A stretch of 61,311 bases of DNA from an uncultured Planctomycetales bacterium (GTDB lineage: Bacteria > Omnitrophota > Gorgyraeia > Zapsychrales > Fredricksoniimonadaceae): positions 1 to 61,311 of the forward strand of contig CAZOXU010000011.1 of assembly GCA_964583975.1 (NCBI GenBank), read 5' to 3'. How positions within the stretch are numbered: position 1 is the first letter of the stretch; every line of letters starts with the position of its first letter. Below the pieces are notes generated by a model. It made no database searches. It saw nothing but the letters and a program-made list of their open reading frames with translations, and was not told the DNA's origin. Both the position numbers and the translations under genes were made by a program. Of this stretch, positions 1 to 61,311 are shown piece by piece.

Positions 1-24
1 CCTTCAACCGCGATTCCACCACAT
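1..24. repeat. Terminal direct repeat, copy 1 (ccttcaaccgcgattccaccacat), identical to 61288..61311
   Basis: The first 24 nt of the window exactly equal the last 24 nt. Confidence 0.95.
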
Positions 25-616
25 ACGCTGTCCCTGCCTCGGCGTTCTCGTAAACCACCGCCTTCTCTGGAACGATCCACACCTTGTTAAAGGTATTCAC
101 TGGTATATTGGTTGTGTTGTACTTACTTTGGGCCTCTTCATAGATTCTCTTCCAAAACTTCTTTCCCACTTCATCTTCTGGATAAATGAGCGAGGCAGTG
201 ATTTGTTTGAGCATGTAGTCTTCTGCCAACAAATCTCGGCCCATCTCCGTTAAACCAAAGCTCTCTGGCACGATACGGTCTTTTTCGTAGGGAGATAGAT
301 TAACCCAGAGATCTCGCTCTGGCACGGTAAGGCTGGCGAGGAAATATTTGATGAGTCGATTGGCTTCATCATGTAGGGGCACAGCATGCTGTGCCCCTAC
401 ATCGCCCTGATCCATAATAAATTCAAATTGAAATGGATTATCCGGATGGACCTTGATGCCTTTCAAGATGGCTGGATTGACAGCGGGGCTGAGACTGACT
501 CGGACACCGGGTGTGGGTAAACGAATTTCCTGGGCCGAGGCAGGCAAAGGCCCAAAGGTATTAATTAAGAAAGCCACAAGGATGGCTATGTGGATTAATG
601 GGGTCGGTTTTCTCAT
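1..616 (-). CDS. 5' part (about 205 codons) of a giant-exoprotein family gene: signal peptide plus conserved N-terminal module; the ORF runs off the window start
   Basis: My own translation from the ATG at 616..614 reads MRKPTPLIHIAILVAFLINTFGPLPASAQEIRLPTPG...LWVNLSPYEKDRIVPE...NTFNKVWIVPEKAVVYENAEAGTAYVVESRLK. There is no stop before position 1. By eye it is clearly homologous to residues ~40-215 of the 33305..38098 protein. It is absent from the supplied ORF track because it has no stop in the window. Confidence 0.8.
   Translation of the reverse strand, partial: MRKPTPLIHIAILVAFLINTFGPLPASAQEIRLPTPGVRVSLSPAVNPAILKGIKVHPDNPFQFEFIMDQGDVGAQHAVPLHDEANRLIKYFLASLTVPERDLWVNLSPYEKDRIVPESFGLTEMGRDLLAEDYMLKQITASLIYPEDEVGKKFWKRIYEEAQSKYNTTNIPVNTFNKVWIVPEKAVVYENAEAGTAYVVESRLK
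373..400. repeat. 28-nt perfect GC-rich palindrome GTAGGGGCACAGCATGCTGTGCCCCTAC inside coding sequence
   Basis: The sequence is its own reverse complement. It shares the GTAGGGGC...GCCCCTAC termini with the 59-nt elements at 60939 and 61188. It encodes VGAQHAVPL in frame in a variable loop of the N-terminal module. Confidence 0.9.
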
Positions 617-3119: not shown

Positions 3120-3126
3120 CAAACTT

Positions 3127-3906: not shown

Positions 3907-3909
3907 AAA

Positions 3910-6241: not shown

Positions 6242-6245
6242 TCAA

Positions 6246-6749: not shown

Positions 6750-6777
6750 ACAACCCTCCTTGAGTTTGGTTAAATAA

Positions 6778-9204: not shown

Positions 9205-9265
9205 GCGGTGATTATAAAGTTTGTTATCTTCTGTGTCAACGAACATCACGGTTATTTTCCTTAAT

Positions 9266-15674: not shown

Positions 15675-15683
15675 AATATCAAA

Positions 15684-15754
15684 TTGCCCAGCCAGGACTC
15701 GAACCTGAACAACGAGATCCAAATTCTCGGGTGCTACCATTACACCACCGGGCA
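15684..15754 (-). tRNA. tRNA-Gln (anticodon UUG), no encoded CCA
   Basis: Hand-folded cloverleaf from the minus-strand sequence TGCCCGG TG GTGT AATGGTA GCAC C CGAGA ATTTGGA TCTCG TTGT TCAGG TTCGAGT CCTGG CTGGGCA A. It has a 7-bp acceptor stem, 4-bp D stem, 5-bp anticodon stem with the loop reading TTG at positions 34-36, and a T-loop TTCGAGT. Confidence 0.85.
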
Positions 15755-15767
15755 ATAAAATCCTAAA

Positions 15768-28386: not shown

Positions 28387-29565
28387 TTAAAATTGGGCTG
28401 CTTTTTGTAATTGCTCAATAACATGCGTATTAATATTAAAAGCCTTGGTATTCCATGAAGAGACCATAGACTTTCGTTCTTTAGGCCAAAATTCTTTCCA
28501 TCGGTGCCATCCTGTCACAGGGCCAGGCCTATGCACCCAAAGACTGTTAGGATAATAACTGAAAATCCCGTCAGGAAACATATAATTCTTAACTGCTTTA
28601 TAAGTCCAGTAATTCCAGTGGAATCCAAAATCGTTAAAACATTTTAGCTCGTCTTTAAGGTACTCGCACTCATTATAGAGACCTTCTCGATAGTGGACAC
28701 CAAACTCGCCCACATGAATAGGCCTCTGCTTGATCTTAGAGAATTGATAATACCCCTCCAGCCTTCGGCGCATCACCTTCTTGTCCCATCCAGAAAGTGG
28801 GTATTTTAAAAATGGCACAAAATTAAAGGTATACTCCAGAGGTTCATAAAAATGAATACTGTAAACTAAATTATCATCTGAAAAATCATCCAAAGCCTCA
28901 ACATCTTGGGCCCAACGATTCGCTTCAACAAACAAAATATGATTCTTATCAACACTACGAATAGCTTTAATGACTTCTCGATAAAATTCATTTAAGAGCT
29001 TCACATTCCCTAGAACAGCTTCATTGAGCAAATCATATCCAGCAATGGTTGGTTCATTCTTATATCGATCGGCCAGCATCGACCATAAATCATAAGTCTT
29101 CTGTCGATTAATCTTCTTAGTCCATAATTCTGCCTTGCCATTACTGTCTGAATGCCAGTCGTGATTTTGGGCTCCGTAAGCAGCATGTAAATCCAGAATA
29201 ATGTATAGGTTATATCGTTTGGCCCAAGCAATGGCTTGATCTAGGTATCGGATGGTTTTAGGGTCAGCAGCAATTTTATAATGAAATGGCAGACGAATGC
29301 AATTCATTCCCCAGCGCGCCACCTGTTTAAAGTCATCTTCGGTTATAAAACTATCCCTAAAACACCTCAGAAGATCCTCAAGCATCGTCTTAGAGTGCTG
29401 TTTGATAAATTCTTTTTCAAACACGTGCTGCGCCAAATTAGGTGCATGCATAAAATAGGCTTCCATCATTAGCCATCCACCAAAGTTTACTCCGCGCAAC
29501 TTAAGCGGTCGATCGCTAGCATCGACAATAGAAGTTTTTTTAACTTTTAAAAATCGATTCTTCAT
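28387..29565 (-). CDS. Glycoside hydrolase family 5 (cellulase/exo-glucanase-like), no signal peptide
   Basis: RGVNFGGWLMME, IRLPF, the acid/base region LLNEA, HFYEP and the nucleophile region HVGEFG. Confidence 0.8.
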   Translation of the reverse strand: MKNRFLKVKKTSIVDASDRPLKLRGVNFGGWLMMEAYFMHAPNLAQHVFEKEFIKQHSKTMLEDLLRCFRDSFITEDDFKQVARWGMNCIRLPFHYKIAADPKTIRYLDQAIAWAKRYNLYIILDLHAAYGAQNHDWHSDSNGKAELWTKKINRQKTYDLWSMLADRYKNEPTIAGYDLLNEAVLGNVKLLNEFYREVIKAIRSVDKNHILFVEANRWAQDVEALDDFSDDNLVYSIHFYEPLEYTFNFVPFLKYPLSGWDKKVMRRRLEGYYQFSKIKQRPIHVGEFGVHYREGLYNECEYLKDELKCFNDFGFHWNYWTYKAVKNYMFPDGIFSYYPNSLWVHRPGPVTGWHRWKEFWPKERKSMVSSWNTKAFNINTHVIEQLQKAAQF

Positions 29566-30383
29566 AACAAAGAATGTTTCTGTAAAAACACGAGTAGTTG
29601 TTCTTTGATTTTTGGATCACTCACCAAGGCGCCTTCATTATGTCCTCCATGAGTGGTAATAAATATTTTAGGTTCCTTGGCTCGATTATACAGAGCCTGT
29701 CCCATACTATAAGGAACTGTTTGATCTTCTTGGCTATGTAAGAAAACCTTTGGAGCAGTAATCTTGTCCATCTTAGAAATCAAATCAAACTTAATACTCA
29801 TCATAAATGTGGGGAGACCAGGATAAATCCGACGGGCCATATCACGAGCGCAAGTAAAAGAAGACTCTATGATTAAACCTGCTACCTTTCTGCGCATAGC
29901 CAGTTCACTCATCACCGCCCCACCTAAGGAAGCTCCATAGGCAATGATACGAGAGTGATCCATATCATCACGCCCTTGAAGGTAATCATAAACAGCCTGA
30001 GCGTCTAGATAAACTCCACCTTCACTAGGAGAACCGCTGCTTCGTCCATATCCTCGATAATCAAAAATCACAATGTTAAATCCTAAGTCATGAAAAAATT
30101 TAACCTTCATGACTCTCTGCCCCATGGTGCCAGCATTGCCATGAGCAAAAATTACAATCGGCGCTGTAGGAGAAGATTTAACCAACCAGGCATTAATAGT
30201 TAGCCCATCAGTAGTTTTTAAGAATAAATCCTCATACTTCATACCTGCGCTAGCAGGAGTAGAGTCTATATTCCTGCTTGGATAGAACACAGAAGTACCT
30301 TCCAAAAATCTAATGAGCAGAAATAAACCTACGAAGACAACTGAAAAAATGATCAATAGACCAGGCATAAACCGAGGTAACAT
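29562..30383 (-). CDS. Membrane-anchored alpha/beta hydrolase
   Basis: N-terminal TM helix, HGNAG, nucleophile elbow GASLGG and the C-terminal HGGHN. Confidence 0.8.
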   Translation of the reverse strand: MLPRFMPGLLIIFSVVFVGLFLLIRFLEGTSVFYPSRNIDSTPASAGMKYEDLFLKTTDGLTINAWLVKSSPTAPIVIFAHGNAGTMGQRVMKVKFFHDLGFNIVIFDYRGYGRSSGSPSEGGVYLDAQAVYDYLQGRDDMDHSRIIAYGASLGGAVMSELAMRRKVAGLIIESSFTCARDMARRIYPGLPTFMMSIKFDLISKMDKITAPKVFLHSQEDQTVPYSMGQALYNRAKEPKIFITTHGGHNEGALVSDPKIKEQLLVFLQKHSLL

Positions 30384-30384
30384 A

Positions 30385-30777
30385 CTAGGTATTTCTTAGC
30401 GGGATTAATGTCATCATGACTTTAATGGCTTTAATAATATCTTCAAGCTTGCAAGGTTTAATCAAATAATGGTCGGCTTGCAAATCCAAGGTCTTTTGCA
30501 CGCTTTGCATCTCCCCCAGAGCTGAAATAATGATCACAGGAATCCATTTCTTAGAAGGAGGTGAAGAACGTAGTTTACTCAAGACCGAATACCCATCCAT
30601 TTCTGGCATGACTAAATCTAAAAGAATAATATCGGGATTTTCTTGCTGAATTTTTTCCCAAGCTTCTTTGCCATTGGAAGCCTTAATAACATCATATCCT
30701 GAATTCGCTATCCTTTTGGCCATGATTTCCAAGACAGCAAACTCATCATCAGCCATCAAAATTTTAATTGCCGCCAT
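30385..30777 (-). CDS. Stand-alone response regulator receiver domain
   Basis: ILMADDE ... ILLDLVMPEMDG ... KP pattern. 130 aa with no output domain. Confidence 0.85.
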   Translation of the reverse strand: MAAIKILMADDEFAVLEIMAKRIANSGYDVIKASNGKEAWEKIQQENPDIILLDLVMPEMDGYSVLSKLRSSPPSKKWIPVIIISALGEMQSVQKTLDLQADHYLIKPCKLEDIIKAIKVMMTLIPLRNT

Positions 30778-32516: not shown

Positions 32517-33251
32517 TTATGAAGGGCCAGGATTAGAATTCTTAAGACGAATTATTTCCTGTTCTTTGGACTGTAATTGTTTTTTTAACTCTTCATGTTC
32601 AGTTTTAGCAACCCACTGAATATCTTCACGCTTTTCTTTAAGCTTTGCATTCTCTTGTTTTAATTCCCTTAATTCTTTATTAAGTTGCTCTAATGAAGTT
32701 TCAAGACTACTAGCTTTTGTTGAAAGTGTCCTTTTTTCTTCTTTAAGCGCTTCAAATTGTATTTTAATCTCAGTAAATTGCCCTTCCACACGAATACGAT
32801 TGGAGTGTTCTTTCTCCAAATCTTTCTCGGTGCGATAAATCTGGTCTTTTAATTCTTTTTCATGCAATTTAGATTTATCCAAATTGACCTGCTCTTTTTC
32901 ACGCCAGCTTTTTTCTTGGGACAATTTATCCAATAAATCTTTTTCGTGTACTTTATTGTCAGCTGTTTTCTTCTCTAATTCTTTATATTGGATCTTTAAT
33001 TTCTCAATATCCCCTAATAAGGCATTATTATTTCTTTCCCAACGTTCAGCAATAGCCTTCCAATCCTTGGAAGCTTGTTCCTTGGCTTGGGCTTCAGCCA
33101 ATAGTTGAGCTTTAGCTTCCTTAGCCTTCTTCTTCACCCCATTACTAGAATCAGTAGGCAAGGTGTAAATGACAATGGCAAAAGCCACCAAAACTATAAA
33201 AACTAAAATAATAATCCAAAACATAATTCTCCTAAAAACAAACCCTCGCAA
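32517..33251 (-). CDS. Membrane-anchored coiled-coil protein (hypothetical)
   Basis: One N-terminal TM helix (IMFWIIILVFIVLVAFAIVIY) followed by about 200 aa of K/E/L-rich heptad-like sequence. It lies 53 nt downstream of the giant ORF. Confidence 0.6.
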   Translation of the reverse strand: MRGFVFRRIMFWIIILVFIVLVAFAIVIYTLPTDSSNGVKKKAKEAKAQLLAEAQAKEQASKDWKAIAERWERNNNALLGDIEKLKIQYKELEKKTADNKVHEKDLLDKLSQEKSWREKEQVNLDKSKLHEKELKDQIYRTEKDLEKEHSNRIRVEGQFTEIKIQFEALKEEKRTLSTKASSLETSLEQLNKELRELKQENAKLKEKREDIQWVAKTEHEELKKQLQSKEQEIIRLKNSNPGPS

Positions 33252-33304
33252 ATTTTTCTAATCATACACGAAAAATGCGAGGGTCTAAAATAAATTAATG
33301 ATCG

Positions 33305-36300
33305 TTATACTTTCGCTAATAACTCTTCCCTACCAGGCACCAAACCTAACAAAGGTCGCATATCAACAATAGGTGTAATATTGAGAATTACTGGACGAAC
33401 GCCAGAAAAATCACCCGCCTGGAACTGCTTAATCATCGCAGGGTCAAAACGGATATCAATCTTCTGACCATCTACATCTATCTTCATATTCTTAGAATTA
33501 AGGTCGATACCACCCTTAGTATCATCATTCTTAGTTGCCATAGCATTATCTGAGAATTTAATTGTTCCACTCGCATTAATCTCTATTTCAACATTGTCTA
33601 AACGGACGGTATCTCCTCTTGTTAATCCATATTTCACTCGAAAAGCTTCAAAGAAATCTTCCAAAGCAATATTTCGACCAGTTTTATTAATAATACTCAC
33701 ATGGTCTCCAATTTGGAAAACTCGAGGATTAATTTGAACACTACTAGGAATAGTATTAGTACCGACCATGGCTGCATCGCTATTAAATTTCCCATCCTTA
33801 ATTAAACCGCTTTGAATTAATTCCTCATCACTTCGCTTCAAAAAAGCTACACCATCATCAATATTTTTTGGCTCCTTCAAATCATGAATATCTTCCCCAG
33901 AGCTTACAAATGCGGCCTTGGTTGATGGCAATTGAGTCACATCCCCTGTTACAGCTTCAAGATAAAAATATCCATCTTTAAACCGCAAATTAAAAGGCAA
34001 TTGATTTTTTAAAATAGTTCTTAATTTATCTACCGCATACACCAGTCTAAAAGCATTGTAGGGCGCACCTTTTTTACCTGCTTCATCTAAAAGTCCAACC
34101 AAGGCAGGACTCGCCTTCACATTGGATGTTTCAATGAGAAAGCTTCTGCCAGTTTTTGTGTTTTTCAAAACATTGCCACCTTTTTGTTTGCTAGGATTAT
34201 TCACCAGCTCTCCGACAACACCATAGCCTCGATCTATTTGGGCCAAAGCAAAGGCAATTTTATCAATACTAACAACACTGTCTTTGGAAAATTTAGTCAG
34301 ATCATTAATGCGGTGACTAGAGATAACCTCAAAATCAGAAAATTCATCAATTAAAGCCCCAGTTATATATTTTCGTTGGCCTTGGCTATCTAAACGAAAT
34401 GCTTGGCCATTTTCTGCTAATTGCATGAAATTATGGCCATGTCCATAAGGCACAGTAGGGCTATTAGGATCAAATTCTAAAACTCCATTGTTGAATTTAA
34501 ATCCATGAAAAGTTGGTTGAACAACAAAGAATATATTGGCAGGAGAAAATCCATAGAAGTTATTTCTGATGAAATCCTCTAAAACGTCTTTTTCGATATC
34601 AGCATTCACATTTACAATTATTTTTTGTTGAGTCAAAACTTCCTGAATATTTCTTTTATTGTCTTTAGCGAGCTGCTCTATGGCCAAACGATAAGCCAAA
34701 ATTTGTCGAGGCCCCATTCCTAGGCGAAGTTTGGCATCTGTAGCGCTAGCCTTACCTAATTCTTGAGCTAATTCCCAAATGTCTAAACCATACATCGGAC
34801 CTCTCTTCAATCGAGTAGCAGCACCAGCAAAAATAAATTGTGGAATATAAGCTCCATTTAACAAAGTATTCTTTGCATGCTGTTGAAATTCTGCTGCTTG
34901 ATCAGAACTCAAAAAGCTAGATAAACTAACAACATCATCAGCAAGTTTTAAATCATCAGCTTTGGATTGAGCATATATATTTGATCCATCGACAATTTTA
35001 TTAATCTCCCCATCTAAACGTTTAACCTCATCTACATTATTGGTAGTCACAGCTTGATAATAGGCATCCAATAGCGGCTGAATACTTGCTTTAACCGATA
35101 TTACTTTATCAGACAAAGCTTTTTCTAAGCTTGCAATAGGTTTTCCAACCATAGCTCTATCTAAATTCCTTACGCGAAGAAAATCCCCAATATTAGTACC
35201 TCCTTCAGATTGCCATTGATAAAAATCTCCTAAAAGGGTATTTGCATTCAAATCATCTCTCTCTGCTATTTCAGTGATTCTTTCCCTAACATTTTGAGAA
35301 ACTTCCTCGATTGATTTTGGCCGGCCACTTGCTTTAGCTTCAACCGTTCTTTCTTGAACAAAGGCTTGAAGATTATTATTTCCTGTAGATTGTATGGCAC
35401 GAAATACTTCTAAAAGCTTTCCTCGTTGAAGACCTGCCCCTTCTGCTTGCTGCCATATTCCTTCCATTTCCAAATCTTTCATTTCACTAGCTGGTTGCAG
35501 TATTTTATTTCTCACAGTAGTAATTTTAGCCAAAACAAAACTCCTTAAATCAGCCGCACCCGCCATAGATTGTCTTCTTTGAAATTCTAAAAGTAAACGG
35601 CCTCGGCTTAACCCCACATTTTCTGCCTGTTGCCAAATATCTTCGGTAACAGAAGTATTCGGCACATCACCACCATCAATATCTCCTTCATTTAATAATC
35701 GACTAGCAACAGCAGCAGCGACTGCTGCACCAACAGCGGAAGCATTCTCAACCTTTACAATCTCTACATCTTCTGGAGTAAAACCTTCTAATTTTAAAGC
35801 TTCCTCAAATCCTTGTTTCACTAATTCATTCTTCCAATAGACGCTGCCATCAATCACAATTTTCTTTTTTCCAGAAACTGTCACATTTTTTAAAACCTGA
35901 GCAATGGCTGAACCTAATAGAAGTCCAGATCTCTTAAGTAAAGTCTGGCTAATATTCTGCATTTCAAATGCTTCAGCTTCTGAAACAGAGATATCCTCTC
36001 CTAAATACTCCTTAATCAAACTAATTAATTCCAACTTGTCATTGGCAATAGCTAGCTTACCTAATAATACGCTCTCTAAATCATCCCATTTTGAACTTTG
36101 TGCAATTTGGAGGTAATTCCCTTCTTTCGCAGACTTGGCAAGATTTCTAATATTCTCACGCAAAAGCTGAACTAGATATTTTCCTGAAATCATCTTCTCA
36201 AACATTTGTTTTCCCTGAGGCTCTGAATCTCTCAAAACGACTTCATCGCTTTCAGTTCGTAAACTTTCGGGAATATTATTGGTCGAACCTGCCTCTAAAT

Positions 36301-38098
36301 TAATGATATTGCCCTGCGCATCTGTGATTGAAAAATTAGAACCTGTCCCTAAAATGATTCCACTGACAGCTCCAGGAGAAGCTAATTGAGTGGCAATCGT
36401 ATCGTTTAAGACGCCAACAACCTCTAATTTTCTATTATTAAGAGCTGTTTCTAACAATGCTCCTGGATTTTTATTTTGAATATCTTGAAGTTCCCAACCT
36501 TTAGCGAGACGTAAAACTGTTGCACCTCCCATAGATTGATGTGACATAGGAAAAGCAAAAGACAAACCAATCTTATAATCTTTCGATGTTTCTAAAGGTA
36601 ATTCCTTAATTTTGGAAGCCACAAAACTAAAAACATCTGCACTAGTTCTCATTTTTAACTCTTCAGGGAATTTTGCGTCTATTTGTTGAATGGTCGTAGG
36701 TTTTTGACCTGGCTGCATCCTTACTAAAACAATCTTTAAATTTGTTCCACTAAAATCAACTCCAATATAATCTCCAGATTCTCTTCCATTCGCAGGTTTA
36801 AAATATGAATTTAAATAACTCACCCCACCCACACCGCTTTTGCCATTTAATGTTGTTATTAAATTTTCCGCAAAAACATTAGACACTCTTCTAATCGATT
36901 CCGTATCCAACTCAAAACTACTTCTCATAGCTAAATCTGTTTTAGATTTCGGAGTCGTGACTCTTATATTAAAAAGACGTCCTTTTGCAGGATTTACGAT
37001 AAATCTAGCTGCATCGTTATCCCTAGGATTACTCGTTTGAGCTAGATCTAATTTTCCAAGCACCCCACCAGAGAAATATTTTCTTGGGATTACCTGTCCA
37101 TTTTGTACGTCTTCCTTAATATAGTTAAATACACCCTTCTTATACGCCTTTAAGTATTCCTTATAAATCTTCTCCTTAATGGTCTTATCTGCAGTGTCCA
37201 CCCCATTAACCTTAGCTTTATTGCTGTAAACTTGATTAAGCAACGCATCTTTAAGATTTTTCTTATACCAAGCTGCTAAAATCATCGAGTGAAAAATTTG
37301 ACGGAGATTAGCAAAATTCTTTCCCGTATTAACTTCTTTTTCCAGCTCAGGAAGAACGATATCGCGAACGATCTGGGATCCTAAATTATTGGTATCTTGG
37401 GCAACCTGATTCACGGTTTGTTTCTGCGAGGCCAAATAATCTTCTTCCAACATCACCTTCAAATGGCTTGCCACAACGAATGCTGTGTTATCATGCACAA
37501 AAACTTTAGCCTTATCAGCCACAATCCATACCTTATTAAATGTATTTACTGGAATCTCAGTTGATCCATAGAGTGCCTGAGCTTTAGCGTAAACCTTGTT
37601 CCAAAACGCCTTGCCTAATTCTTTCTCGGGATAGATCAATGATGCTGTTAATTGCTTGAGGATATAGTCTTGGGCCAGCATGTCACGTCCCATATCGGTC
37701 TGTCCTAATTCATTAGGAATAATGCGGTCTTTTTCATAAGGTGAAAGGTTAACCCATAAATTTTCTTCGGGAATGGTTAACGAAGCTAAAAAATATTTGA
37801 TGAGCTTTTCAGATTCTGTTTTTAATTGCTCTTGACCGTTGGACAAACCTGAATTTCCTGTATCCACAATAAAATCAAATAAGATGGGGTTCTCTGGATG
37901 AACGCGCAAGCCCTTAACCATCATAGGCACATAATTCTCGGTTAAACTGATCATGGTACCTGGTATGGGAAGACCCAATTCTGCGGGAGATTGAGCTAGA
38001 GCTCGAACTGGAGAAAGAAAGCTAACAATAAAACATACATTAATAACAATTGTTAAACAACGAAAAGCAAACGATTCTTTTTGTCGAGGATTCAACAT
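33305..38098 (-). CDS. Giant modular exoprotein 1 (1,597 aa): signal peptide, shared N-module, hexokinase domain, 3x repeat, UDP-sugar pyrophosphorylase-like domain, small module, shared C-module
   Basis: Uninterrupted 4.8-kb ORF. Its N- and C-terminal modules are homologous to the 54890..61311 ORF. Domain motifs are listed in the sub-features and findings. Confidence 0.88.
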   Translation of the reverse strand: MLNPRQKESFAFRCLTIVINVCFIVSFLSPVRALAQSPAELGLPIPGTMISLTENYVPMMVKGLRVHPENPILFDFIVDTGNSGLSNGQEQLKTESEKLIKYFLASLTIPEENLWVNLSPYEKDRIIPNELGQTDMGRDMLAQDYILKQLTASLIYPEKELGKAFWNKVYAKAQALYGSTEIPVNTFNKVWIVADKAKVFVHDNTAFVVASHLKVMLEEDYLASQKQTVNQVAQDTNNLGSQIVRDIVLPELEKEVNTGKNFANLRQIFHSMILAAWYKKNLKDALLNQVYSNKAKVNGVDTADKTIKEKIYKEYLKAYKKGVFNYIKEDVQNGQVIPRKYFSGGVLGKLDLAQTSNPRDNDAARFIVNPAKGRLFNIRVTTPKSKTDLAMRSSFELDTESIRRVSNVFAENLITTLNGKSGVGGVSYLNSYFKPANGRESGDYIGVDFSGTNLKIVLVRMQPGQKPTTIQQIDAKFPEELKMRTSADVFSFVASKIKELPLETSKDYKIGLSFAFPMSHQSMGGATVLRLAKGWELQDIQNKNPGALLETALNNRKLEVVGVLNDTIATQLASPGAVSGIILGTGSNFSITDAQGNIINLEAGSTNNIPESLRTESDEVVLRDSEPQGKQMFEKMISGKYLVQLLRENIRNLAKSAKEGNYLQIAQSSKWDDLESVLLGKLAIANDKLELISLIKEYLGEDISVSEAEAFEMQNISQTLLKRSGLLLGSAIAQVLKNVTVSGKKKIVIDGSVYWKNELVKQGFEEALKLEGFTPEDVEIVKVENASAVGAAVAAAVASRLLNEGDIDGGDVPNTSVTEDIWQQAENVGLSRGRLLLEFQRRQSMAGAADLRSFVLAKITTVRNKILQPASEMKDLEMEGIWQQAEGAGLQRGKLLEVFRAIQSTGNNNLQAFVQERTVEAKASGRPKSIEEVSQNVRERITEIAERDDLNANTLLGDFYQWQSEGGTNIGDFLRVRNLDRAMVGKPIASLEKALSDKVISVKASIQPLLDAYYQAVTTNNVDEVKRLDGEINKIVDGSNIYAQSKADDLKLADDVVSLSSFLSSDQAAEFQQHAKNTLLNGAYIPQFIFAGAATRLKRGPMYGLDIWELAQELGKASATDAKLRLGMGPRQILAYRLAIEQLAKDNKRNIQEVLTQQKIIVNVNADIEKDVLEDFIRNNFYGFSPANIFFVVQPTFHGFKFNNGVLEFDPNSPTVPYGHGHNFMQLAENGQAFRLDSQGQRKYITGALIDEFSDFEVISSHRINDLTKFSKDSVVSIDKIAFALAQIDRGYGVVGELVNNPSKQKGGNVLKNTKTGRSFLIETSNVKASPALVGLLDEAGKKGAPYNAFRLVYAVDKLRTILKNQLPFNLRFKDGYFYLEAVTGDVTQLPSTKAAFVSSGEDIHDLKEPKNIDDGVAFLKRSDEELIQSGLIKDGKFNSDAAMVGTNTIPSSVQINPRVFQIGDHVSIINKTGRNIALEDFFEAFRVKYGLTRGDTVRLDNVEIEINASGTIKFSDNAMATKNDDTKGGIDLNSKNMKIDVDGQKIDIRFDPAMIKQFQAGDFSGVRPVILNITPIVDMRPLLGLVPGREELLAKV
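33899..34921 (-). other. UDPGP/UAP-like nucleotide-sugar pyrophosphorylase domain within giant protein 1
   Basis: FAGAATRLKRGPMYG (compare AGGQGTRLG), VPYGHGHNF (compare P-x-G-x-G) and NPSKQKGGNVL (the K-GG region). Residues ~1060-1400. Confidence 0.55.
35699..36901 (-). other. Hexokinase-family (actin-fold sugar kinase) domain within giant protein 1
   Basis: Ordered motifs IGVDFSGTNLKIVLV, GLSFAFP, LAKGW, VLNDTIAT, ILGTGSN, NLEAGS, QMFEKMISGKYL, IDGSVY and ASAVGAAVAAAVA (residues ~400-800). Confidence 0.85.
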
Positions 38099-54889: not shown

Positions 54890-57800
54890 TTATGATGCCG
54901 CTGCCAGCTGGGTGACTGGTGTCTGGGTACTGATCCCTAAAAACTTCCTGAGATCAGTCATGGGCTGGATATTGATAATCACGGGATAAAAACCTGGGGC
55001 GTTTTGCAGTTGGGCAAGCTGTGCTGGGTCTAAATTAAACTTTATACCTCCATTAGCATTTTGGGTTTGTAGAAATTTGTCAGAGGTAAGGTCAATACCA
55101 CCTTTTTTGATCATTGCGCTATCTCTGACTAATGAACCTTTCTTAAATAAACTTGAAGCATTAGTCATAGCCGCATCTTCTGCCTTAGACATATCTAAAA
55201 TCTTCGGAAGGATTTCAACACCCAAAGACAATATTCCTGACAGATGCGCGCTAGGCGATCCTGGAATACCTTTTCCTTGAAAATAACTCGGCGGCTTTCC
55301 TAAAGAGCCGAAAAGTCTCTGACTATCTTCGGCAGGCGTCAACTCATCATCTACGACAGTGGCAAGCAAAACATTCTGACCATCCTTGGATGGCACTGCA
55401 GAAGCCAATTGATCCAAGTTTAAATCTCTCATAACTGAATCGACATCTTCTGGAACGAGCCCTTTTTGACGGAATAATTCTTGAATACCCGCATATCGAT
55501 CTCCCTGACTCCAAAGAAGGTGAGAATAATTAACGATAGGGACTATTGTGAAAAGATTTCGCACTAATGGATCTATCAGGTAGGTGCTTGTTGCCACACT
55601 ACCCGTAATGCTTTGCCCTGTTACAGATATTCTAGAGGGATCTATTTCTGGACGATCAGCAAGCCATCGTACAGAAACCAAGGTATCGGCAATCGATTGC
55701 ATAATAAAAGTTTTAAACTTTTCTGCATCAAAATCCAAAGCCACATATCGTTGTACAGAATTCATTCCTTGTGTTCCAGCAGCTGAACGTTTAGCGTATA
55801 AAGGCATTCCTACTTCCAATACCGCAACGCCTTTGCTAGCTAAATAAATAGAAATAAGACGGGCCAGCGTATCTTGTTCATAAAAACTACACAAAACGAC
55901 TCCGGGTAAAAGTTTTCCATCAGTTGTTTTAGGAAGGAAATATCTCGCATAAACATGTTCTGAATTAGGAAAGGCGGATTTATTAAAGGCAGATCGATAG
56001 GTTAGTTCTTGAATAGAAAACGGCTGAGCTTCAGGTGGAGATGTCTTTAATCTTTCTACCATTTGAAGCAGATCAGCAAGCAAAGGAGAATTTTTCATCA
56101 ATTTCTTTAACTGACCGAGAATATAATTAAGAGCTGCATCATCAGTTAAGGCCAAAATTTCTTCTTGTGTCAATGAGCGCAATTGATAATCAACGGTGTT
56201 AATATTTCCCTGAGGATCTCGATCTATCTTTAAATTCGTATCAGTTGGAAGAAATGCGATGTTCTGAGATAGATTTAAACCTGTTAGTTGAGATAATTCT
56301 TCTACAACATCTCTACCTTGTGCCATCGCAGCATCTTGCTTAGGATCGCTCTCCGCTTCCCAATTACCTTTAAAATCTGGAACGACTTCAAAATCATAAT
56401 CAAAAATGTCAAAAGTAATGGTTGATTCAATTAATACCGGTACTGGAAACTCTCCTTCGCGAGAGGGCGCCAACCATTGTAAATCAAAATTTCCAAGAAC
56501 ATCTTGGTCTAAATGAATACCCACCTTATTCAAACGTGCGACAAGAAGTTGAAAATCATGCCGAATGAGTTCATAAACATACGTTTGAAATTCTTCCCAT
56601 CTATTAGGATCTATTCCATAGGCCGCTAAGACATCACGATACCTTTCATCTTCTTTCAACAAGTCATAAGCTTGTTCACGTCCAGAATTATTGGAAAAGA
56701 ACGAAGAACTACCGATACGGGTACTCTGAATCCAGGATGGAGATCTAGAAAAATCTGGATCAGGTTCAAACTTACCGGTTTTTAAATTTCCTCGAAATAA
56801 AAAACGACTTTCGTAAGATTTTCCGTCTAATTTAAAAGCGTTAAAAACAGATTCCATTCCTCCAGAATCATAAATTCTTTCATTCAAAACAACTAATTTC
56901 CATAAACCATCTAAAATCTCAACGGCATCGGTTGTTGAGGTATCTAATGTAAAATGCATACTGTTTAAATCTGGGTCTCTATAAGGAGTAATTTTGTAGT
57001 TATCAAAATACTTAATGACTTTCTCTTGATAAGGATCTTGAAATGAAGGTGAATTGGTATAAGAAAATGTGATGGTCAGATTAGAATCTTTTCCTTTATG
57101 AATATAAAAAATTCCTCTTCCATAGGAACCCGTGTTGGGTTTGAAAATAACTGGCAAAGAAATCTCACCAGACACAATTTGTTGGGCTACTTCTCTAAAA
57201 TTAGCGACATCTCTTGGGTCTGTTAAAGCTTGTAAATAGGATTCGTCTGAAAAACGCATTTCGTCTAATTCTTGAATCACATCAGAATCTCTTTTAAAAG
57301 CAACAAACCAATCGGGCTGACGAACCTTACCGCCCTTAAGTAATTCCCTCATCCCCCACTTACTAGCCAAAAGTCGCTGTATATCAAGAATACTAACCTT
57401 GGCGCTTTGCATTGCTGCATCAACTTTGTAAACTTCTCGCTTCATAGAATCATAAAAAACCGGCTCAGCATTACTCAACTTCTTCCTTCTCCAATTGATG
57501 ATTCCCACTTGAGGGTCAACCATAGATTGGACACCTAGATTAACCATAAGGGCACTCGCTTGAATGCTATGGACAAAAGCTACAACGATGATCTTCCTTC
57601 CTCCATTAAATTTCTTTCTTAATTTCATCCTAGCTTTAAAATCATCCAATCCTTTCTTAGTTCGAATCAGAAGATTTAAATAACTTTCCGAAGGAGAATG
57701 ACCTGAAATACTAGGTAATGTTGCAGTCGCATCCATGCCTCTATTAAAACGATATAAGAACTCTCGCACACCTCTTCCTTCTTTTTGAATATCTGCTACC

Positions 57801-60800
57801 CCTTTTTCATCGAGCAATCCCAAGGATATCTCATCTAAAAAGCTTTCCACATTTGGTTCAATCTTATGCCCTGTTTTATCTTTAACTAGATCCAGAAAAT
57901 CTTGGGCAGTTTGTTGAGTACGATCTTTGGAACTAGTTATAACAACCACATCTGCATTAGATTCAATGTCAGGCCTTAGTTTAGAAAACAAAATCTTTGC
58001 CCCCGCTAGTGACTGTTCCTTACCTTTTAGAGTTAATAAATTTCTTCTTCCTGGAATTAAAATACCTGCATTAGAGTATGTTTGCCCATGTCTTTCCCAA
58101 TAAAAACTAAAATCATCTTGCGAAATTGAAACAAGAGGATCTATTCCATTGAATTTAATTTGACCAGATCCATTAACTAAAACCTTCTCATCTAACTCTT
58201 TTAAGGGTTTCCATTCCGATGGTCTGAGTAAATAAAATCGTGAGATTCCTTTAAAATTTCTCAATACCACCTCTCCTAATTTAATTTCATTAGGATTAAT
58301 TTTCGCAAATCGAATACGCAGCACCGCACCGTCTTCATCTCGCAAAACATCCCTTCTGTCTAAAAGACTCACCTCCGCTTCAGGATGAATTTTCTGAGCA
58401 TAAGAACGCATACTTAATAGACCTTCACCTTTTCCTCCAATTCTGTGATTACCAGCTAACTTTTGAGCTAATTTCTCTTCAGTAGTTTCAGCCTCTTTGA
58501 TAGATAATCCATTGTTTACTACATCAATATTTACAAAACCATCTTTTTCATAAACATAAAAATCAATTTTTAAACTTTTGTTGTCTGGTATTTTACCAAT
58601 GTCTATTCCATGTATAAAAGCATCCGCAGAATTTTCTATGGCATGAATAAATATAGATTCTAACAAAGAAACCACAAGTCTTTGATGACCGTCTTTATGG
58701 ACGACCAGCATTTTCTGGGATCCAAAATCTGAACTCTGATTTCCTAAAATAGAGGCAATTTTGTGATCCATAGGAAGGACGATTTCTTCTAATCTTCCCC
58801 ATACTCTTTGTAGTCCTTCTTTTTTAGAAAGGCTGGTTAATATTGGGAAATCTTCTTTAGAAAATTCGATCGTTCCTAAAGAAAATAACTTTTCCGCCTC
58901 CATCGCTGCATCTTTTGTGGTCGATCTTAATAAGGATTCCAAATCTTGTCTTACGCTCTTATCTTTAGGATCAAGCTCTATTGCTTTTCGAAAGGCCGCT
59001 TCTGCCCTCTTAAAATCATGTAACTTGGTTAGCACGCGTCCAAGACTTTTATAGGCATTTGTATACCGGGGGCTCTCTTCTATTGCTTTTAAATAAGCCT
59101 CCTCCGCTCCTTCTAAGTCACCTTTATTTTCCAATAAAAATCCTAAATTGTAACGTAGCCAAGAATTTCTTGAATCAAGCTTTATGCCTGTTCGAAAAGA
59201 CGCTTCAGCTCGTGCTAAATCACCCTTCTTCATCAATAGAAGTCCAAGATTGTTATAAGCGATTTGGTATTTAGGATTTATCTTTAATGCTGTTAAATAT
59301 GCTGTTTCAGCTCCTGTTAAATCACCTTTACTGTCTAACAAATCCCCTAAAGAAACGTATGCACTCATATCTTTAGGATCAAGCTCTATTTCTTTATGAT
59401 GCGCAGCCTCTGCTCCTGCCAAGTCTCCTTTATGCATCAGAAAAATTCCTAAATTCTGATAAAAACTTCCAATTATTCCTAATTGCCACGGTAAAATCCT
59501 AACAACCTGCAAATCATTCTTTCCTTTAAAATCAAATGTTAAACCTTCATTAGAGATATCTTTTTCGATTGGCAATTTCACAATAAAACTAAAATCTAAT
59601 TCTCCCGAAGGCCTCAACTCCTCAGAAGGTTCTGCGATATAGTATCGTCCATCAGATAACCTAACTAATATAAAGACATGATCTATTTCTGAAACCAGGT
59701 AAACCTTCTTAATTCCAATTGCATCCAAGTACAATGCCATTAAAGCACTTCTGCCGACACAATTAATTTCCTTAGTAAGTCGTATCCGAATTGGAGAGGC
59801 TTCATTTAAAGCAGAATAATCTTTATCTGTCCACCCGTGCATTTTGATAATTAACCGCATAATTTTATTGATGGCTTGGATTTCAAGCTCTGCACCAGCT
59901 AAAGGCGATCTCTCTCTTGCCTTTTGTATTTCTGCCTTTAATTGCTCTGTATCAATCTGATCAAAACGCTTAGCTTTCCTTTGAAACCCAAACGACTCTA
60001 ATGAAGAGAGCTTTGGTGACTCATTCTTAGATCTTGCTAAATCTTCTTTTAATAAATGCATCCCTCTTAAATAAGTTTGATTTTCTATATCAATCTGGAC
60101 ATGGCGTACGGTCAATTGAATGGCTTTGGTCATAAGAGTCTGCAGCTCATCAAGTTTCTGTGAATCTTTTAACCCAAGCCATTCTTTAATCTCTCTTTCT
60201 TGCTCCAAATCTAGGGGCTTTTGATTTGAAGAAACATGATCCACATGAAATCCATCCGGGATTTTCAAGTCACTATTGTCTTGAGCCAAAATGTATCCTA
60301 AAGCATCAAATAGACCAATAACCTGTTCATGTTCTTGAGTTTTTTGATTCTCATATCTCTGAGCCAAATACCTTGCAGCGTCTCTAAACTTTCCAGAAAT
60401 TCTAGGCAAGGTTCGTTCCTTATCGCTCAAAGGAAGATCCCTAATCTTTTGTGTTAATTCTATAGTTTCTTTAACGTTTATGTCTTCTGGCAACTTGAAA
60501 TGATAAAAAATTTCCCCATTGGTATTCGCAAGCTTTTCAGGTACTAGAAAATCAACCGCTTCTTGACCTCGCGGAACAAATTGCACAACAATATGATCTG
60601 TTAATGGCAGCCAGGCGTATTGATCCTTCTGTCCTTTCTGCGAGCCCGCAAAACGCTTGCGTTCTTGCTCAGTTTCCCATACTGGTTTACTTAAAACTTG
60701 ATCAAGTTTAACTTCTATTCTCATTTTCCCTGCAAGACTAGTCATGGCCGAATCACCAATCACAGATGGGTCTTGACTAATTCTCATAGCTTGAGAAGGT

Positions 60801-61311
60801 TGCAACAACATTCCTCCAGAGAAATATTTGCGAGGCACAGGCTGCTGGGTTATAGGATCAGGCTCTTCTTTGATGTAGTTGTACACGCCTTTTTTGAATG
60901 CTTGGAGGTACCGTTGATAAATTGATTCAACATCCTCGGTAGGGGCAGGCCCCTGTGCCTGCCCGGCTTGAGGGCGACCACGGGGGGTCGCCCCTACGAT
61001 TTTATTCTTATCCGTATACACCCGAGCCAGGATGCTGTCCTTTATTTTCTTCTTGTACCACGTAGCTAGGATTAAAGAATTGTAAACTTGTCTAAGTTGG
61101 GCGAAGTTTTGTCCTTCATTGACTTCGCGGGTGAGTTCGGGGATGACGATTTCACGGATGATGTTATTTCCCAATATATTGGTATCCGTAGGGGCAGGCC
61201 CCTGTGCCTGCCCTTCTTGAGGGCGACCACGGGGGGTCGCCCCTACACCGTTTTTGGATTCCGATAAATAATCTGCCTCTAGCATCACCTTCAACCGCGA
61301 TTCCACCACAT
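54890..61311 (-). CDS. Giant modular exoprotein 2 (>2,139 aa, 5' end off the window edge and apparently continued at 616..1): shared N-module, unknown region, transglutaminase-like Cys protease, TPR, GHKL ATPase-like, histidine phosphatase, ATP-grasp-like, alpha/beta hydrolase-like, shared C-module
   Basis: Uninterrupted 6.4-kb ORF open at the window end. The first codon in the track is an edge GTG, not a real start. Its N- and C-terminal modules are homologous to the 33305..38098 protein. Confidence 0.88.
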   Translation of the reverse strand, partial: VVESRLKVMLEADYLSESKNGVGATPRGRPQEGQAQGPAPTDTNILGNNIIREIVIPELTREVNEGQNFAQLRQVYNSLILATWYKKKIKDSILARVYTDKNKIVGATPRGRPQAGQAQGPAPTEDVESIYQRYLQAFKKGVYNYIKEEPDPITQQPVPRKYFSGGMLLQPSQAMRISQDPSVIGDSAMTSLAGKMRIEVKLDQVLSKPVWETEQERKRFAGSQKGQKDQYAWLPLTDHIVVQFVPRGQEAVDFLVPEKLANTNGEIFYHFKLPEDINVKETIELTQKIRDLPLSDKERTLPRISGKFRDAARYLAQRYENQKTQEHEQVIGLFDALGYILAQDNSDLKIPDGFHVDHVSSNQKPLDLEQEREIKEWLGLKDSQKLDELQTLMTKAIQLTVRHVQIDIENQTYLRGMHLLKEDLARSKNESPKLSSLESFGFQRKAKRFDQIDTEQLKAEIQKARERSPLAGAELEIQAINKIMRLIIKMHGWTDKDYSALNEASPIRIRLTKEINCVGRSALMALYLDAIGIKKVYLVSEIDHVFILVRLSDGRYYIAEPSEELRPSGELDFSFIVKLPIEKDISNEGLTFDFKGKNDLQVVRILPWQLGIIGSFYQNLGIFLMHKGDLAGAEAAHHKEIELDPKDMSAYVSLGDLLDSKGDLTGAETAYLTALKINPKYQIAYNNLGLLLMKKGDLARAEASFRTGIKLDSRNSWLRYNLGFLLENKGDLEGAEEAYLKAIEESPRYTNAYKSLGRVLTKLHDFKRAEAAFRKAIELDPKDKSVRQDLESLLRSTTKDAAMEAEKLFSLGTIEFSKEDFPILTSLSKKEGLQRVWGRLEEIVLPMDHKIASILGNQSSDFGSQKMLVVHKDGHQRLVVSLLESIFIHAIENSADAFIHGIDIGKIPDNKSLKIDFYVYEKDGFVNIDVVNNGLSIKEAETTEEKLAQKLAGNHRIGGKGEGLLSMRSYAQKIHPEAEVSLLDRRDVLRDEDGAVLRIRFAKINPNEIKLGEVVLRNFKGISRFYLLRPSEWKPLKELDEKVLVNGSGQIKFNGIDPLVSISQDDFSFYWERHGQTYSNAGILIPGRRNLLTLKGKEQSLAGAKILFSKLRPDIESNADVVVITSSKDRTQQTAQDFLDLVKDKTGHKIEPNVESFLDEISLGLLDEKGVADIQKEGRGVREFLYRFNRGMDATATLPSISGHSPSESYLNLLIRTKKGLDDFKARMKLRKKFNGGRKIIVVAFVHSIQASALMVNLGVQSMVDPQVGIINWRRKKLSNAEPVFYDSMKREVYKVDAAMQSAKVSILDIQRLLASKWGMRELLKGGKVRQPDWFVAFKRDSDVIQELDEMRFSDESYLQALTDPRDVANFREVAQQIVSGEISLPVIFKPNTGSYGRGIFYIHKGKDSNLTITFSYTNSPSFQDPYQEKVIKYFDNYKITPYRDPDLNSMHFTLDTSTTDAVEILDGLWKLVVLNERIYDSGGMESVFNAFKLDGKSYESRFLFRGNLKTGKFEPDPDFSRSPSWIQSTRIGSSSFFSNNSGREQAYDLLKEDERYRDVLAAYGIDPNRWEEFQTYVYELIRHDFQLLVARLNKVGIHLDQDVLGNFDLQWLAPSREGEFPVPVLIESTITFDIFDYDFEVVPDFKGNWEAESDPKQDAAMAQGRDVVEELSQLTGLNLSQNIAFLPTDTNLKIDRDPQGNINTVDYQLRSLTQEEILALTDDAALNYILGQLKKLMKNSPLLADLLQMVERLKTSPPEAQPFSIQELTYRSAFNKSAFPNSEHVYARYFLPKTTDGKLLPGVVLCSFYEQDTLARLISIYLASKGVAVLEVGMPLYAKRSAAGTQGMNSVQRYVALDFDAEKFKTFIMQSIADTLVSVRWLADRPEIDPSRISVTGQSITGSVATSTYLIDPLVRNLFTIVPIVNYSHLLWSQGDRYAGIQELFRQKGLVPEDVDSVMRDLNLDQLASAVPSKDGQNVLLATVVDDELTPAEDSQRLFGSLGKPPSYFQGKGIPGSPSAHLSGILSLGVEILPKILDMSKAEDAAMTNASSLFKKGSLVRDSAMIKKGGIDLTSDKFLQTQNANGGIKFNLDPAQLAQLQNAPGFYPVIINIQPMTDLRKFLGISTQTPVTQLAAAS
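55310..55942 (-). other. Alpha/beta-hydrolase-like domain in giant protein 2
   Basis: LLPGVVLCSFYEQ..., the IDPSRISVTGQSITGSVA nucleophile-elbow-like segment, and the later VVDDELTP. Confidence 0.42.
56390..57172 (-). other. ATP-grasp-like domain in giant protein 2
   Basis: LPVIFKPNTGSYGRGIFYI (K-P-x-x-G-S-x-G-x-GI) followed by a ~250-aa alpha/beta region. Weak, motif-level only. Confidence 0.4.
57515..58117 (-). other. Histidine phosphatase (phosphoglycerate-mutase-like) domain in giant protein 2
   Basis: The FYWERHGQTYSN RHG motif, with a downstream IVVAFVHSIQASAL second-His region. Confidence 0.5.
58385..58657 (-). other. GHKL (HATPase_c-like) ATP-binding domain in giant protein 2
   Basis: N-box-like IHAIENSADA, G1-like VVNNGLSI and G2-like GGKGEGLLSM, in the canonical order. 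Confidence 0.45.
58940..59482 (-). other. Five to six tandem TPR repeats in giant protein 2
   Basis: Recurrent 34-aa units: GDLAGAEAAHHKEIELDPKD, GDLTGAETAYLTALKINPKY, GDLARAEASFRTGIKLDSRN, GDLEGAEEAYLKAIEESPRY, HDFKRAEAAFRKAIELDPKD. Confidence 0.85.
59636..59830 (-). other. Transglutaminase-like / papain-fold cysteine protease core in giant protein 2
   Basis: INCVGRSALMALYLDAIGI (Cys517) ... IDHVFILVRLSDGRYYIAEP (His544, then an acidic residue). This is the typical C-H-D/E spacing of transglutaminase-like domains. Confidence 0.5.
60939..60997. repeat. 59-nt GC-rich double-hairpin element, copy A, in frame in giant gene 2
   Basis: GTAGGGGCAGGCCCCTGTGCCTGCCCGGCTTGAGGGCGACCACGGGGGGTCGCCCCTAC. 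Stems GGGCAGGC/GCCTGCCC and GGGCGACC/GGTCGCCC, with terminal inverted repeats GTAGGGG/CCCCTAC. It encodes VGATPRGRPQAGQAQGPAPT. Confidence 0.92.
61188..61246. repeat. 59-nt GC-rich double-hairpin element, copy B, in frame in giant gene 2
   Basis: Identical to copy A except for 2 nt in the linker (CCCTTCTTGAGG versus CCCGGCTTGAGG). It encodes VGATPRGRPQEGQAQGPAPT. Confidence 0.92.
61288..61311. repeat. Terminal direct repeat, copy 2, identical to 1..24
   Basis: The last 24 nt of the window exactly equal the first 24 nt. Confidence 0.95.

Follow-up and report, generated by a model that had tools for sequence, protein, structure and literature searches.

Omnitrophota encode proteins of at least 10,000 amino acids (aa) that carry sugar-metabolism domains and are predicted to be extracytoplasmic, and cleavage by C39/S8 domains has been suggested for these giants (West-Roberts et al., 2023, bioRxiv 10.1101/2023.11.21.568195; Archaeovorins, bioRxiv 10.64898/2026.06.07.730766). 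Here we analyse a much shorter protein from the same phylum, which we call the target. It is encoded in a stretch of 61,311 nucleotides (contig CAZOXU010000011.1 of GenBank assembly GCA_964583975.1, an uncultured bacterium of the GTDB lineage Omnitrophota; Gorgyraeia; Zapsychrales; Fredricksoniimonadaceae), and this whole stretch is referred to below as the window. The original prediction, made from the letters of the DNA alone, described the target as a signal-peptide protein that fuses a hexokinase to a UDP-sugar pyrophosphorylase-like (UDPGP-like) domain and regarded this fusion as the novelty. Our analysis places the hexokinase-UDPGP combination among very many cargo pairings in a family whose members, numbering at least 8,290 clusters, share an N-terminal module (N-module) and a C-terminal tail, and the unit of interest is this carrier family and not the pairing.

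The giants and Archaeovorins resemble the target in their phylum and in carrying PGM, PGI, FBPase, hexokinase and starch synthase domains behind signal peptides or transmembrane (TM) segments. They differ in their length of 10,000-30,000 aa or more, their many TM helices and their C39/S8 peptidase, dockerin or SecA-like domains, whereas the target has 1,597 aa, a single hydrophobic segment and none of those Pfam domains. Neither of the two preprints mentions a conserved N-terminal domain, a GGIDLN tail, a linker or cleavage motif, or cysteine, and our literature search found nothing that joins Omnitrophota with the term 'polyprotein'. The carrier family appears to be a variant of the exported multi-enzyme proteins of Omnitrophota, and several of its own features appear undescribed. 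A 2026 paper, which cites transmission electron microscopy work, reports that the predator V. archaeovorus and its prey are in open cytoplasmic contact.

Four further systems invite comparison. MARTX toxins also have conserved N- and C-terminal regions around variable enzymatic cassettes, which are freed by cleavage of the inter-domain linkers (PMC4453568, PMC6315884). However, they use a type I secretion system (T1SS) without a Sec signal and have RTX/GD-rich repeats, an internal cysteine protease domain and toxic effector cargo, whereas Pfam and NCBIfam gave no RTX/GD-rich repeat or cysteine protease match in the target and a Sec-type signal is present. TpsA and other type V passengers share with the target a Sec signal, a conserved N-terminal secretion domain of ~250-300 aa, a large variable passenger and a low cysteine content, but the TPS domain is a Pfam-recognised beta-helix with NPNL/NPNG motifs, whereas Pfam does not recognise the N-module, for which a mostly helical structure is predicted. 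No TPS (haemagglutination activity) domain was found in 23 N-modules, no TpsB-type gene lies next to the target, and the only Omp85 protein in the window looks like BamA. In Chlamydia trachomatis, housekeeping sugar enzymes have likewise gained export signals and act outside the bacterial cytoplasm; in this related lineage secreted PGM (CT295), glycogen synthase and others use host-derived sugar nucleotides (PMC4829429, PMC9251005). These enzymes differ in being separate proteins with type III secretion signals and not Sec-signal fusions to a common head and tail.

FKP (L-fucokinase/GDP-fucose pyrophosphorylase) unites a sugar kinase and a nucleoside diphosphate (NDP)-sugar pyrophosphorylase in one polypeptide, and such polypeptides were thus already known, although the original prediction had taken the fusion for the novelty. 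In FKP, which is cytoplasmic, a GHMP anomeric kinase is combined with the pyrophosphorylase of the step that follows, whereas the target pairs an ASKHA hexokinase (6-phosphorylating) with a UAP/UGP-fold domain and the mutase step is missing. With the hexokinase (PF00349/PF03727) and UDPGP (UAP/USP/UGP, PF01704) families themselves the target modules share folds and most signature residues, but the UDPGP-like module differs in lying below the Pfam detection limit and in its shortened nucleotide-loop region.

Results

The target gene and its modules

The target gene (33305..38098, minus strand, ATG start, TAA stop) encodes 1,597 aa; the coordinates of the original prediction were correct, and the strand, which it left unstated, is minus. 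The gene and the hairpin that follows it contain the following features, in the order of translation.

37994..38098, minus strand: signal peptide, aa 1-35, with a basic n-region (R5, K7, R13), an 18-aa hydrophobic core and the site RALA/Q (the slash marks the cleavage position)
37061..37993, minus strand: conserved N-module, aa 36-346 (loosely to ~387), LGLPxPGTM...HPENPLLFDF...WVNLSPYE...DYILKQLTASL...YFSGG
36926..36937, minus strand: junction motif 1, DLAM, aa 388-391, between N-module and hexokinase
35684..36925, minus strand: hexokinase module, aa 392-805, PF00349 and PF03727
35162..35656, minus strand: helical linker, aa 816-974, three ~37-aa repeats (aa 816-852, 874-910 and 938-974)
35150..35161, minus strand: junction motif 2, DRAM, aa 980-983, just before the UDPGP-like module
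33779..35146, minus strand: divergent nucleotidyltransferase module of predicted UDPGP fold, aa 985-1440, with FAGAATRL, GMGPRQ, PYGHGHN, HRINDL, KQKGGN, PYNAFR and VTGD
33767..33778, minus strand: junction motif 3, DAAM, aa 1441-1444, directly after the UDPGP-like module
33551..33766, minus strand: small domain, aa 1445-1516, between junction motifs 3 and 4
33539..33550, minus strand: junction motif 4, DNAM, aa 1517-1520, 6 residues before the tail
33308..33520, minus strand: conserved C-terminal tail, aa 1527-1597, GGIDLN-x14-IRFDPAMIKQFQAGDFSGVRPVILNITPIVDMRPLLGL and a short charged end, no TM segment
33243-33283, minus strand: hairpin, CCCTCGCA…TGCGAGGG with an inner TTTTTC/GAAAAA extension

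A GGAG sequence lies 7 nt 5' of the ATG, preceded by a ~160 nt AT-rich spacer, and the long hairpin of 41 nt starts 21 nt 3' of the stop codon; with this Shine-Dalgarno sequence, spacer and 3' hairpin the target looks like a transcription unit of its own. The GC content is even along the whole gene, and three module junctions are crossed by independent homologues (N-module/hexokinase by P0033 and P0056, linker/UDPGP by P0002, UDPGP/tail by P0007 and P0016).

The linker between the two enzyme modules repeats the pattern (D/G)IWQQAE..GL.RG.LL..F, which was read directly from the translation; it has no Pfam match, and its repeats align only with P0002 among the top matches. The small domain has no Pfam or NCBIfam match, HtaA scoring only below threshold (E 0.067), and in a Pfam and NCBIfam scan of the whole protein the hexokinase was the only match. 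The tail of ~65 aa can also be read as 'GGIDLN...FDPAM...PLLGL'.

The N-module and the tail define a large family

The whole-protein search gave 4,566 significant matches, and architectures were compared over the best 119 of these. Only two segments are common to the target and this set, namely aa 1-346, found in 119/119 at 44-76% identity, and the tail (aa 1527-1590), found in ~70-80%; the middles differ. The cargo carried there by the top matches includes PGM/PMM, PGI, PGK, enolase, iPGM, His-phosphatase PGAM, FBPase, transaldolase, 6PGL, NDK, UDPGP, malate synthase/ICL, PPDK, GDH, adenylate kinase, NAPRT, GHMP kinase, epimerases, glycosyltransferases, TPR/HEAT and LysM domains, and near-minimal members such as P0222 (533 aa) contain little beyond N-module and tail.

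A profile of the N-module retrieved 8,290 representatives at 50% identity from 1.84e9 proteins, 6,655 of them at E<=1e-30, and the module was N-terminal, starting at residue ~24-40, among all matches listed. In contigs chosen as one genome per species we confirmed at least 593 N-module loci, with several loci per genome, and 80/80 among those listed lie in metagenome-assembled genomes titled Omnitrophota/Omnitrophica or bearing placeholder titles. The target has the signal peptide, the N-terminal N-module (595 bits against the profile over aa 34-388) and the C-terminal tail that define the family. Judged by these matches and loci, it belongs to a very large family that is restricted to Omnitrophota, comprises at least 8,290 clusters at 50% identity and is apparently undescribed. 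Among the genes neighbouring the 80 loci, the second-largest cluster is in all likelihood a shadow ORF antisense to the N-module.

Two more members lie in the window, making three among ~58 genes in 61 kb.

54890..61309, minus strand: paralogue 2, 2,139 aa, TPR block and AXE1-type esterase, GGIDLT tail, runs off the right window end
2..616, minus strand: paralogue 3, signal peptide (…PLPASA/QE) and N-module visible, runs off the window start

Paralogue 2 has six D.AM sites that bracket its domains and 2 Cys in its 2,139 aa, and the N-module of paralogue 3 is 57% identical to that of the target.

The 23 N-modules scanned gave no Pfam match, the N-module has no NCBIfam match, and its profile found nothing significant among PDB sequences. 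Its alignment contains 64 invariant columns. Among the invariant residues are S87 (WVNLSPYE), K116 and S121 (LKQLTASL), with no invariant His or Cys, and from this residue pattern a role as a Ser/Lys-dyad hydrolase is conceivable. The tail matched no NCBIfam or Pfam sorting-signal model (type IX secretion C-terminal domain, PEP-CTERM, LPXTG, GlyGly-CTERM), and the target C-terminus has no hydrophobic segment.

For the fused PGK of one member (P0113, aa 761-1152), a word-index search, which is not a phylogeny, found that the best standalone relatives with names are all archaeal at 35-47% identity (Bathyarchaeia, Njordarchaeales, Aenigmatarchaeota, Micrarchaeota, Methanomicrobia and Nitrososphaeria), and this cargo may be of archaeal origin.

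Export signal and cysteine content

The N-terminus that the original prediction called signal-like does have the shape of a Sec signal peptide. The only hydrophobic segment of the target spans aa 8-36 (maximum 2.2 in a 19-residue Kyte-Doolittle window, <=1.46 elsewhere). Across the family the net charge of the n-region is +1 or higher in 97% of members, and the h-region, with a median of 18 residues, is rather long. Of 233 members, 212 have a small-x-small site 4-9 residues before the conserved LPxPG. The pair at -3/-1 is AxA in 104, SxA in 45, VxA in 18 and GxA in 9 (176 of the 212 sites), the rest being other small or aliphatic pairs, and residue +1 is Q, D or A.

Both cysteines of the target fall within the signal peptide, which leaves none in the 1,562 aa of the mature chain. 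The mature chains of the 233 members contain 201 Cys in 301,299 aa (0.07%), and 120 of them have none at all, compared with 1.23% in 18 clearly cytoplasmic proteins and 0.26% in six envelope proteins (BamA, Skp, SurA and others) of the same window; relative to cytoplasmic proteins of the same genome, cysteine is depleted 16-fold in the family. The depletion extends to individual folds. The seven fused hexokinase domains contain a single Cys among 2,739 aa, whereas the three standalone relatives, found by a word-index search with the hexokinase module alone, have 16 in 1,169 aa; three fused PGK domains have none in 1,168 aa, against 0.56% in 120 standalone ones. Low cysteine is typical of proteins that cross envelopes unfolded (review of type V secretion systems, PMC8151025). 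The near-absence of cysteine, envelope-like as it is, supports a location of the family outside the cytoplasm. Counts for single envelope proteins of the window (BamA 1, Skp 0, SurA-like 0, MlaD 1, a TPR signal-peptide protein 0) suggest that exported proteins in general avoid cysteine in the source organism.

The D-x-A-M junction motif

In the variable regions of the family, D-x-A-M occurs 164 times where 16 are expected (10-fold) and is the most enriched gapped tetramer, the next motif reaching only 2.7-fold. Within the window it is absent from the 15,615 aa of other ORFs and occurs 11 times in the 3,941 aa of the three family members. The first D.AM has a median position of aa 383 across the family. 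Two members illustrate the arrangement, with sites and modules ordered as 392 / 980 / enolase / 1471 / PGAM / 1865 / PGK in P0025 and as 1300 / PGM / 1849 in P0024. In six proteins the motif brackets enolase, PGAM, PGK, PGM, TPR and esterase domains, and none of its sites lies within a Pfam domain. On these distributions we consider D-x-A-M a family-specific marker of module junctions.

Two explanations of the motif were set aside. A DNA recombination joint was rejected because of the synonymous variation of its codons and the unconserved flanks. Signal peptidase I as the protease, cleaving after the Ala, is a poor fit with Asp at -3, and so is its cutting after A-M-A, where position +4 is Ala or Ser in only ~30% of sites.

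The enzyme modules

The peptides that the original prediction quoted all occur in the order it gave: MLNPRQKESFAFRCLTIVINVCFIVSFLSPVRALA, IGVDFSGTNLKIVLV, GLSFAFP, LAKGW, VLNDTIAT, ILGTGSN, and then QMFEKMISGKYL, IDGSVY, ASAVGAAVAAAVA, FAGAATRL, VPYGHGHN and KQKGGNVL. Its hexokinase assignment held, with PF00349 (aa 392-573, 1.2e-32, 113.7 bits) and PF03727 (aa 580-797, 1.8e-25, 90.2 bits) both above their gathering cut-offs of 24.3 and 24 and with human HK2 matching at 2e-49 (phmmer). The alignment with HK2 retains the hexose-binding and catalytic positions (target/HK2: LAKGW/WTKGF, LNDT/VNDT, GTGSN/GTGSN, NLEAGS/NMEWGA, GKQMFEKMISG/GKQLFEKMISG), that is, the K of LAKGW, the N-D of LNDT, the N of GTGSN, the E of NLEAGS and the Q/E of GKQMFEKMISG. 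The corresponding reference residues are K169, N204, D205, N231, E256 and E290 of human glucokinase. By this alignment the sugar-binding and catalytic residues of the target hexokinase are intact; its phosphate-1 motif reads DFSGTN against DLGGTN in HK2, with one G replaced by S. The module has no cysteine, is only ~30% identical even to other hexokinases within the carrier family, and represents a rare cargo, seen in 6 of the 119 other top matches.

The UDPGP-like assignment stood as regards the fold and failed as regards Pfam. PF01704 matched neither the target (E<=1) nor any of the 19 domain members (the target and 18 relatives; E<=10), and of the Pfam families that the original prediction had named only PF00349 and PF03727 were thus recovered. 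When PDB was searched with a profile of the domain, seven UAP (UDP-GlcNAc pyrophosphorylase) entries came top at E 1e-4 to 0.01. An AlphaFold2 model of the module (pLDDT 91.3, pTM 0.90) gave UAP/USP/UGP structures for all of the top 50 Foldseek matches in PDB (E 5.7e-16 to 1e-12, probability 1.0, TM-score ~0.55-0.56), and in this model aa 985-1440 have a UDPGP fold. In the UAP profile alignment PYGHG falls on P(D/N)G(N/H)G, and HRINDL and KQKGG show little or no variation in the domain family, which recurs in ~30 of the 119 other top matches, sometimes as a tandem duplicate and often beside PGM. Both cargo types of the target (hexokinase PF00349 and UAP/UGP fold) are better known from eukaryotes.

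Genomic context

The window also contains the following genes.

2307-9306, minus strand: envelope-biogenesis cluster with LpxI, LpxA, an LpxC-FabZ fusion (3910-5211), LpxD, a Skp-like protein and BamA with five POTRA stretches
14418-15755, minus strand: GlmU-like gene, ordinary bacterial type, 5 Cys, lacking the N-module
28387-30383, minus strand: GH5 cellulase-family gene and alpha/beta-hydrolase (S9/S33-like) gene, a few kb downstream of the target
32517-33251: ORF next to the target, 244 aa, no Pfam match, N-terminal hydrophobic segment
38258-41788, minus strand: genes directly upstream of the target, encoding a 522-aa TPR protein, a 117-aa Hpt protein and a PAS-HisKA-HATPase-receiver hybrid histidine kinase

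SurA and MlaD are encoded in the window as well, and together LpxI, LpxA, LpxC-FabZ, LpxD, BamA, Skp, SurA and MlaD indicate that the source organism is diderm with lipid A. A single-domain response regulator lies at 30385-30777. The GH5 protein has 4 Cys and no obvious signal peptide. Two called starts are questionable: the TTG of the GlmU gene (15755) overlaps tRNA-Gln (15683-15755), which places the real start downstream of that tRNA, and the hairpin 3' of the target (33243-33283) overlaps the called TTG of the ORF at 32517-33251, which makes this start doubtful. Nearly all window genes are on the minus strand and the GC skew is negative throughout (cumulative -4.15), consistent with a segment of a single replichore.

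Discussion

We give a probability of roughly 55% to the reading that the target is a Sec-exported, signal-peptidase-processed modular enzyme carrier of an Omnitrophota-specific family. The whole chain would cross the inner membrane by Sec and be cleaved after A35, and the N-module and tail would be shared handling parts, serving export, anchoring or assembly, by which enzymes that otherwise belong in the cytoplasm are placed outside it. In that location the target would phosphorylate hexose and make NDP-sugar, acting with paralogous carriers that bear PGM, PGI, NDK, adenylate kinase and glycosyltransferases, and this set could form an externalised pathway of sugar activation and central carbon metabolism. 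Since many Omnitrophota are presumed to be nanobacteria that depend on a host or live as predators, such a pathway would have to receive ATP and other nucleoside triphosphates (NTPs) as well as sugars from a host or prey cell. The destination of the carrier would be the periplasm, the cell surface or the prey interface, and D-x-A-M would, on the simplest reading, serve for recognition or processing, so that the cassettes can be separated or handled singly.

A more far-reaching version, which we regard as possible but with the odds against it, would make the signal peptide, the N-module, the D-x-A-M-delimited cassettes and the GGIDLN tail a sorting and delivery platform specific to the phylum. 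As one joint proposal, this platform would export cysteine-free enzymes of central metabolism and sugar-nucleotide synthesis, at least some of them archaeal-type; much sugar metabolism would run outside the organism's own cytoplasm, whether on or within a host or prey cell or in an internal compartment of the style of the Planctomycetes-Verrucomicrobia-Chlamydiae group; and the polyproteins would be cut at D-x-A-M by some protease, possibly the N-module itself.

Several points weigh against export of a working enzyme carrier. The signal-peptide call uses simple features computed by hand, and cysteine depletion speaks for an extracytoplasmic constraint and not for a final destination. To our knowledge, a normal periplasm offers no nucleotide supply for ATP/UTP-dependent enzymes; the original prediction had seen a puzzle in placing such enzymes behind an export signal, and this puzzle is genuine, the near-total lack of cysteine pointing the same way as the signal. 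Hexokinase and UDPGP catalyse non-consecutive steps, because the former gives hexose-6-phosphate, the latter uses sugar-1-phosphate and the mutase is missing. The adenosine motif of the hexokinase is degenerate, with several changes (ENASAVGAA against EDGSGKGAA), and in the UDPGP-like module, where FAGAATRLKRG aligns with AGGQ(A/G)TRLG of the nucleotide loop, the 'PK' lysine loop is 3 residues shorter, so that activity is not assured. D-x-A-M is missing internally from 57 of the 233 members (for example P0055) and could be a structural linker motif. The AlphaFold2 model of the N-module is mixed alpha/beta and mostly helical at a moderate pLDDT of 66, with no significant match among PDB folds (best E 0.4); since the fold is unassigned and the model moderate, its handling role is inferred purely from architecture. 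Finally, clustering of the neighbours of the 80 loci gave no conserved secretion-system, protease or sortase gene.

Where such a carrier would end up is the subject of two of the alternatives. In line with the effector-like delivery that the original prediction offered as one option, it could be a delivered polyprotein effector in the manner of MARTX, whose head and tail would bring it into or onto a prey or host cell and whose cassettes, freed at D-x-A-M, would work in the prey cytoplasm with its ATP and UTP, a reading that would refine the destination of the exported carrier without contradicting it. The conserved ends, variable cassette array and short junction motifs correspond to the MARTX layout (PMC4453568, PMC6315884), the extreme cysteine depletion fits unfolded translocation, and the cargo requires nucleotides; in addition, the closest named standalone relatives of the fused PGK are all archaeal, and, according to the 2026 paper mentioned above, archaea are the prey of one Omnitrophota species, whose contact with them is an open cytoplasmic one. 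We nevertheless regard such delivery as rather doubtful, given that Pfam and NCBIfam scans revealed no RTX repeats, cysteine protease domain, T1SS signal or recognised translocation domain, that no protease was found, and that the cargo consists of housekeeping enzymes and not toxins. Weak fold matches of the N-module to ClyA-type pore-forming toxins and colicin Ia would point in its direction, but they are not significant (probability <=0.09) and were not used as evidence. The carrier might instead stay in the periplasm or the organism's own surface coat, tethered by N-module and tail, and form a metabolic layer outside the cytoplasm for the pre-processing of sugars, a role that West-Roberts et al. 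suggested for the glycolytic domains of giant proteins. Besides the signal peptide and the cysteine pattern, the near-minimal P0222, which suggests a structural role of the end modules themselves, and the non-metabolic cargo (TPR, esterase, LysM) are in keeping with this. Residence in the envelope nonetheless seems unlikely to us, because the NTPs on which kinases and NDP-sugar pyrophosphorylases depend are not known to be present in periplasm or medium, and no anchoring motif was found (LPXTG, PEP-CTERM, SLH, lipobox, C-terminal TM).

The other two alternatives deny export. As the original prediction had also considered, the hydrophobic N-terminus could be an uncleaved inner-membrane anchor holding a metabolon on the cytoplasmic side. 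Such an arrangement would remove the ATP/UTP difficulty, a scaffold in the cytoplasm would be expected to carry enzymes of central metabolism, and the h-region, with its median of 18 residues, is rather long. However, the positive n-region predicts an N-in, C-out topology, the small-x-small site is conserved as AxA, SxA, VxA or GxA in 176 of 212 sequences, cysteine is depleted 16-fold relative to cytoplasmic proteins, with depletion even inside hexokinase and PGK folds, and the window also encodes a normal cytoplasmic GlmU that has 5 Cys; on topology rules, cleavage site and cysteine data we consider the anchor quite improbable. That the ORF is an artefact, either a chimeric assembly or a falsely extended start, is a suggestion we can hardly entertain. 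The exact protein is not on record elsewhere, which makes the contig its only source, and no evidence in favour was found, whereas the independent homologues across the junctions and the uniform composition argue against a chimeric misassembly, the signal peptide and N-module are conserved at the protein level in thousands of sequences, and the ORF has a Shine-Dalgarno sequence before it and a terminator-like hairpin after it.

If the exported carrier is the right reading, thousands of Omnitrophota proteins now annotated as 'hypothetical', 'hexokinase' or 'phosphomannomutase' would be exported carriers and not cytoplasmic enzymes, and metabolic reconstructions of these widespread, uncultured bacteria would change. 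The ~310-aa domain, the ~65-aa tail, the four-residue junction motif and the compositional signature would then provide a molecular handle on how Omnitrophota nanobacteria exploit their partners, and the carrier family would offer a natural collection of classical enzymes in modular, cysteine-free form, joined by a defined linker motif.

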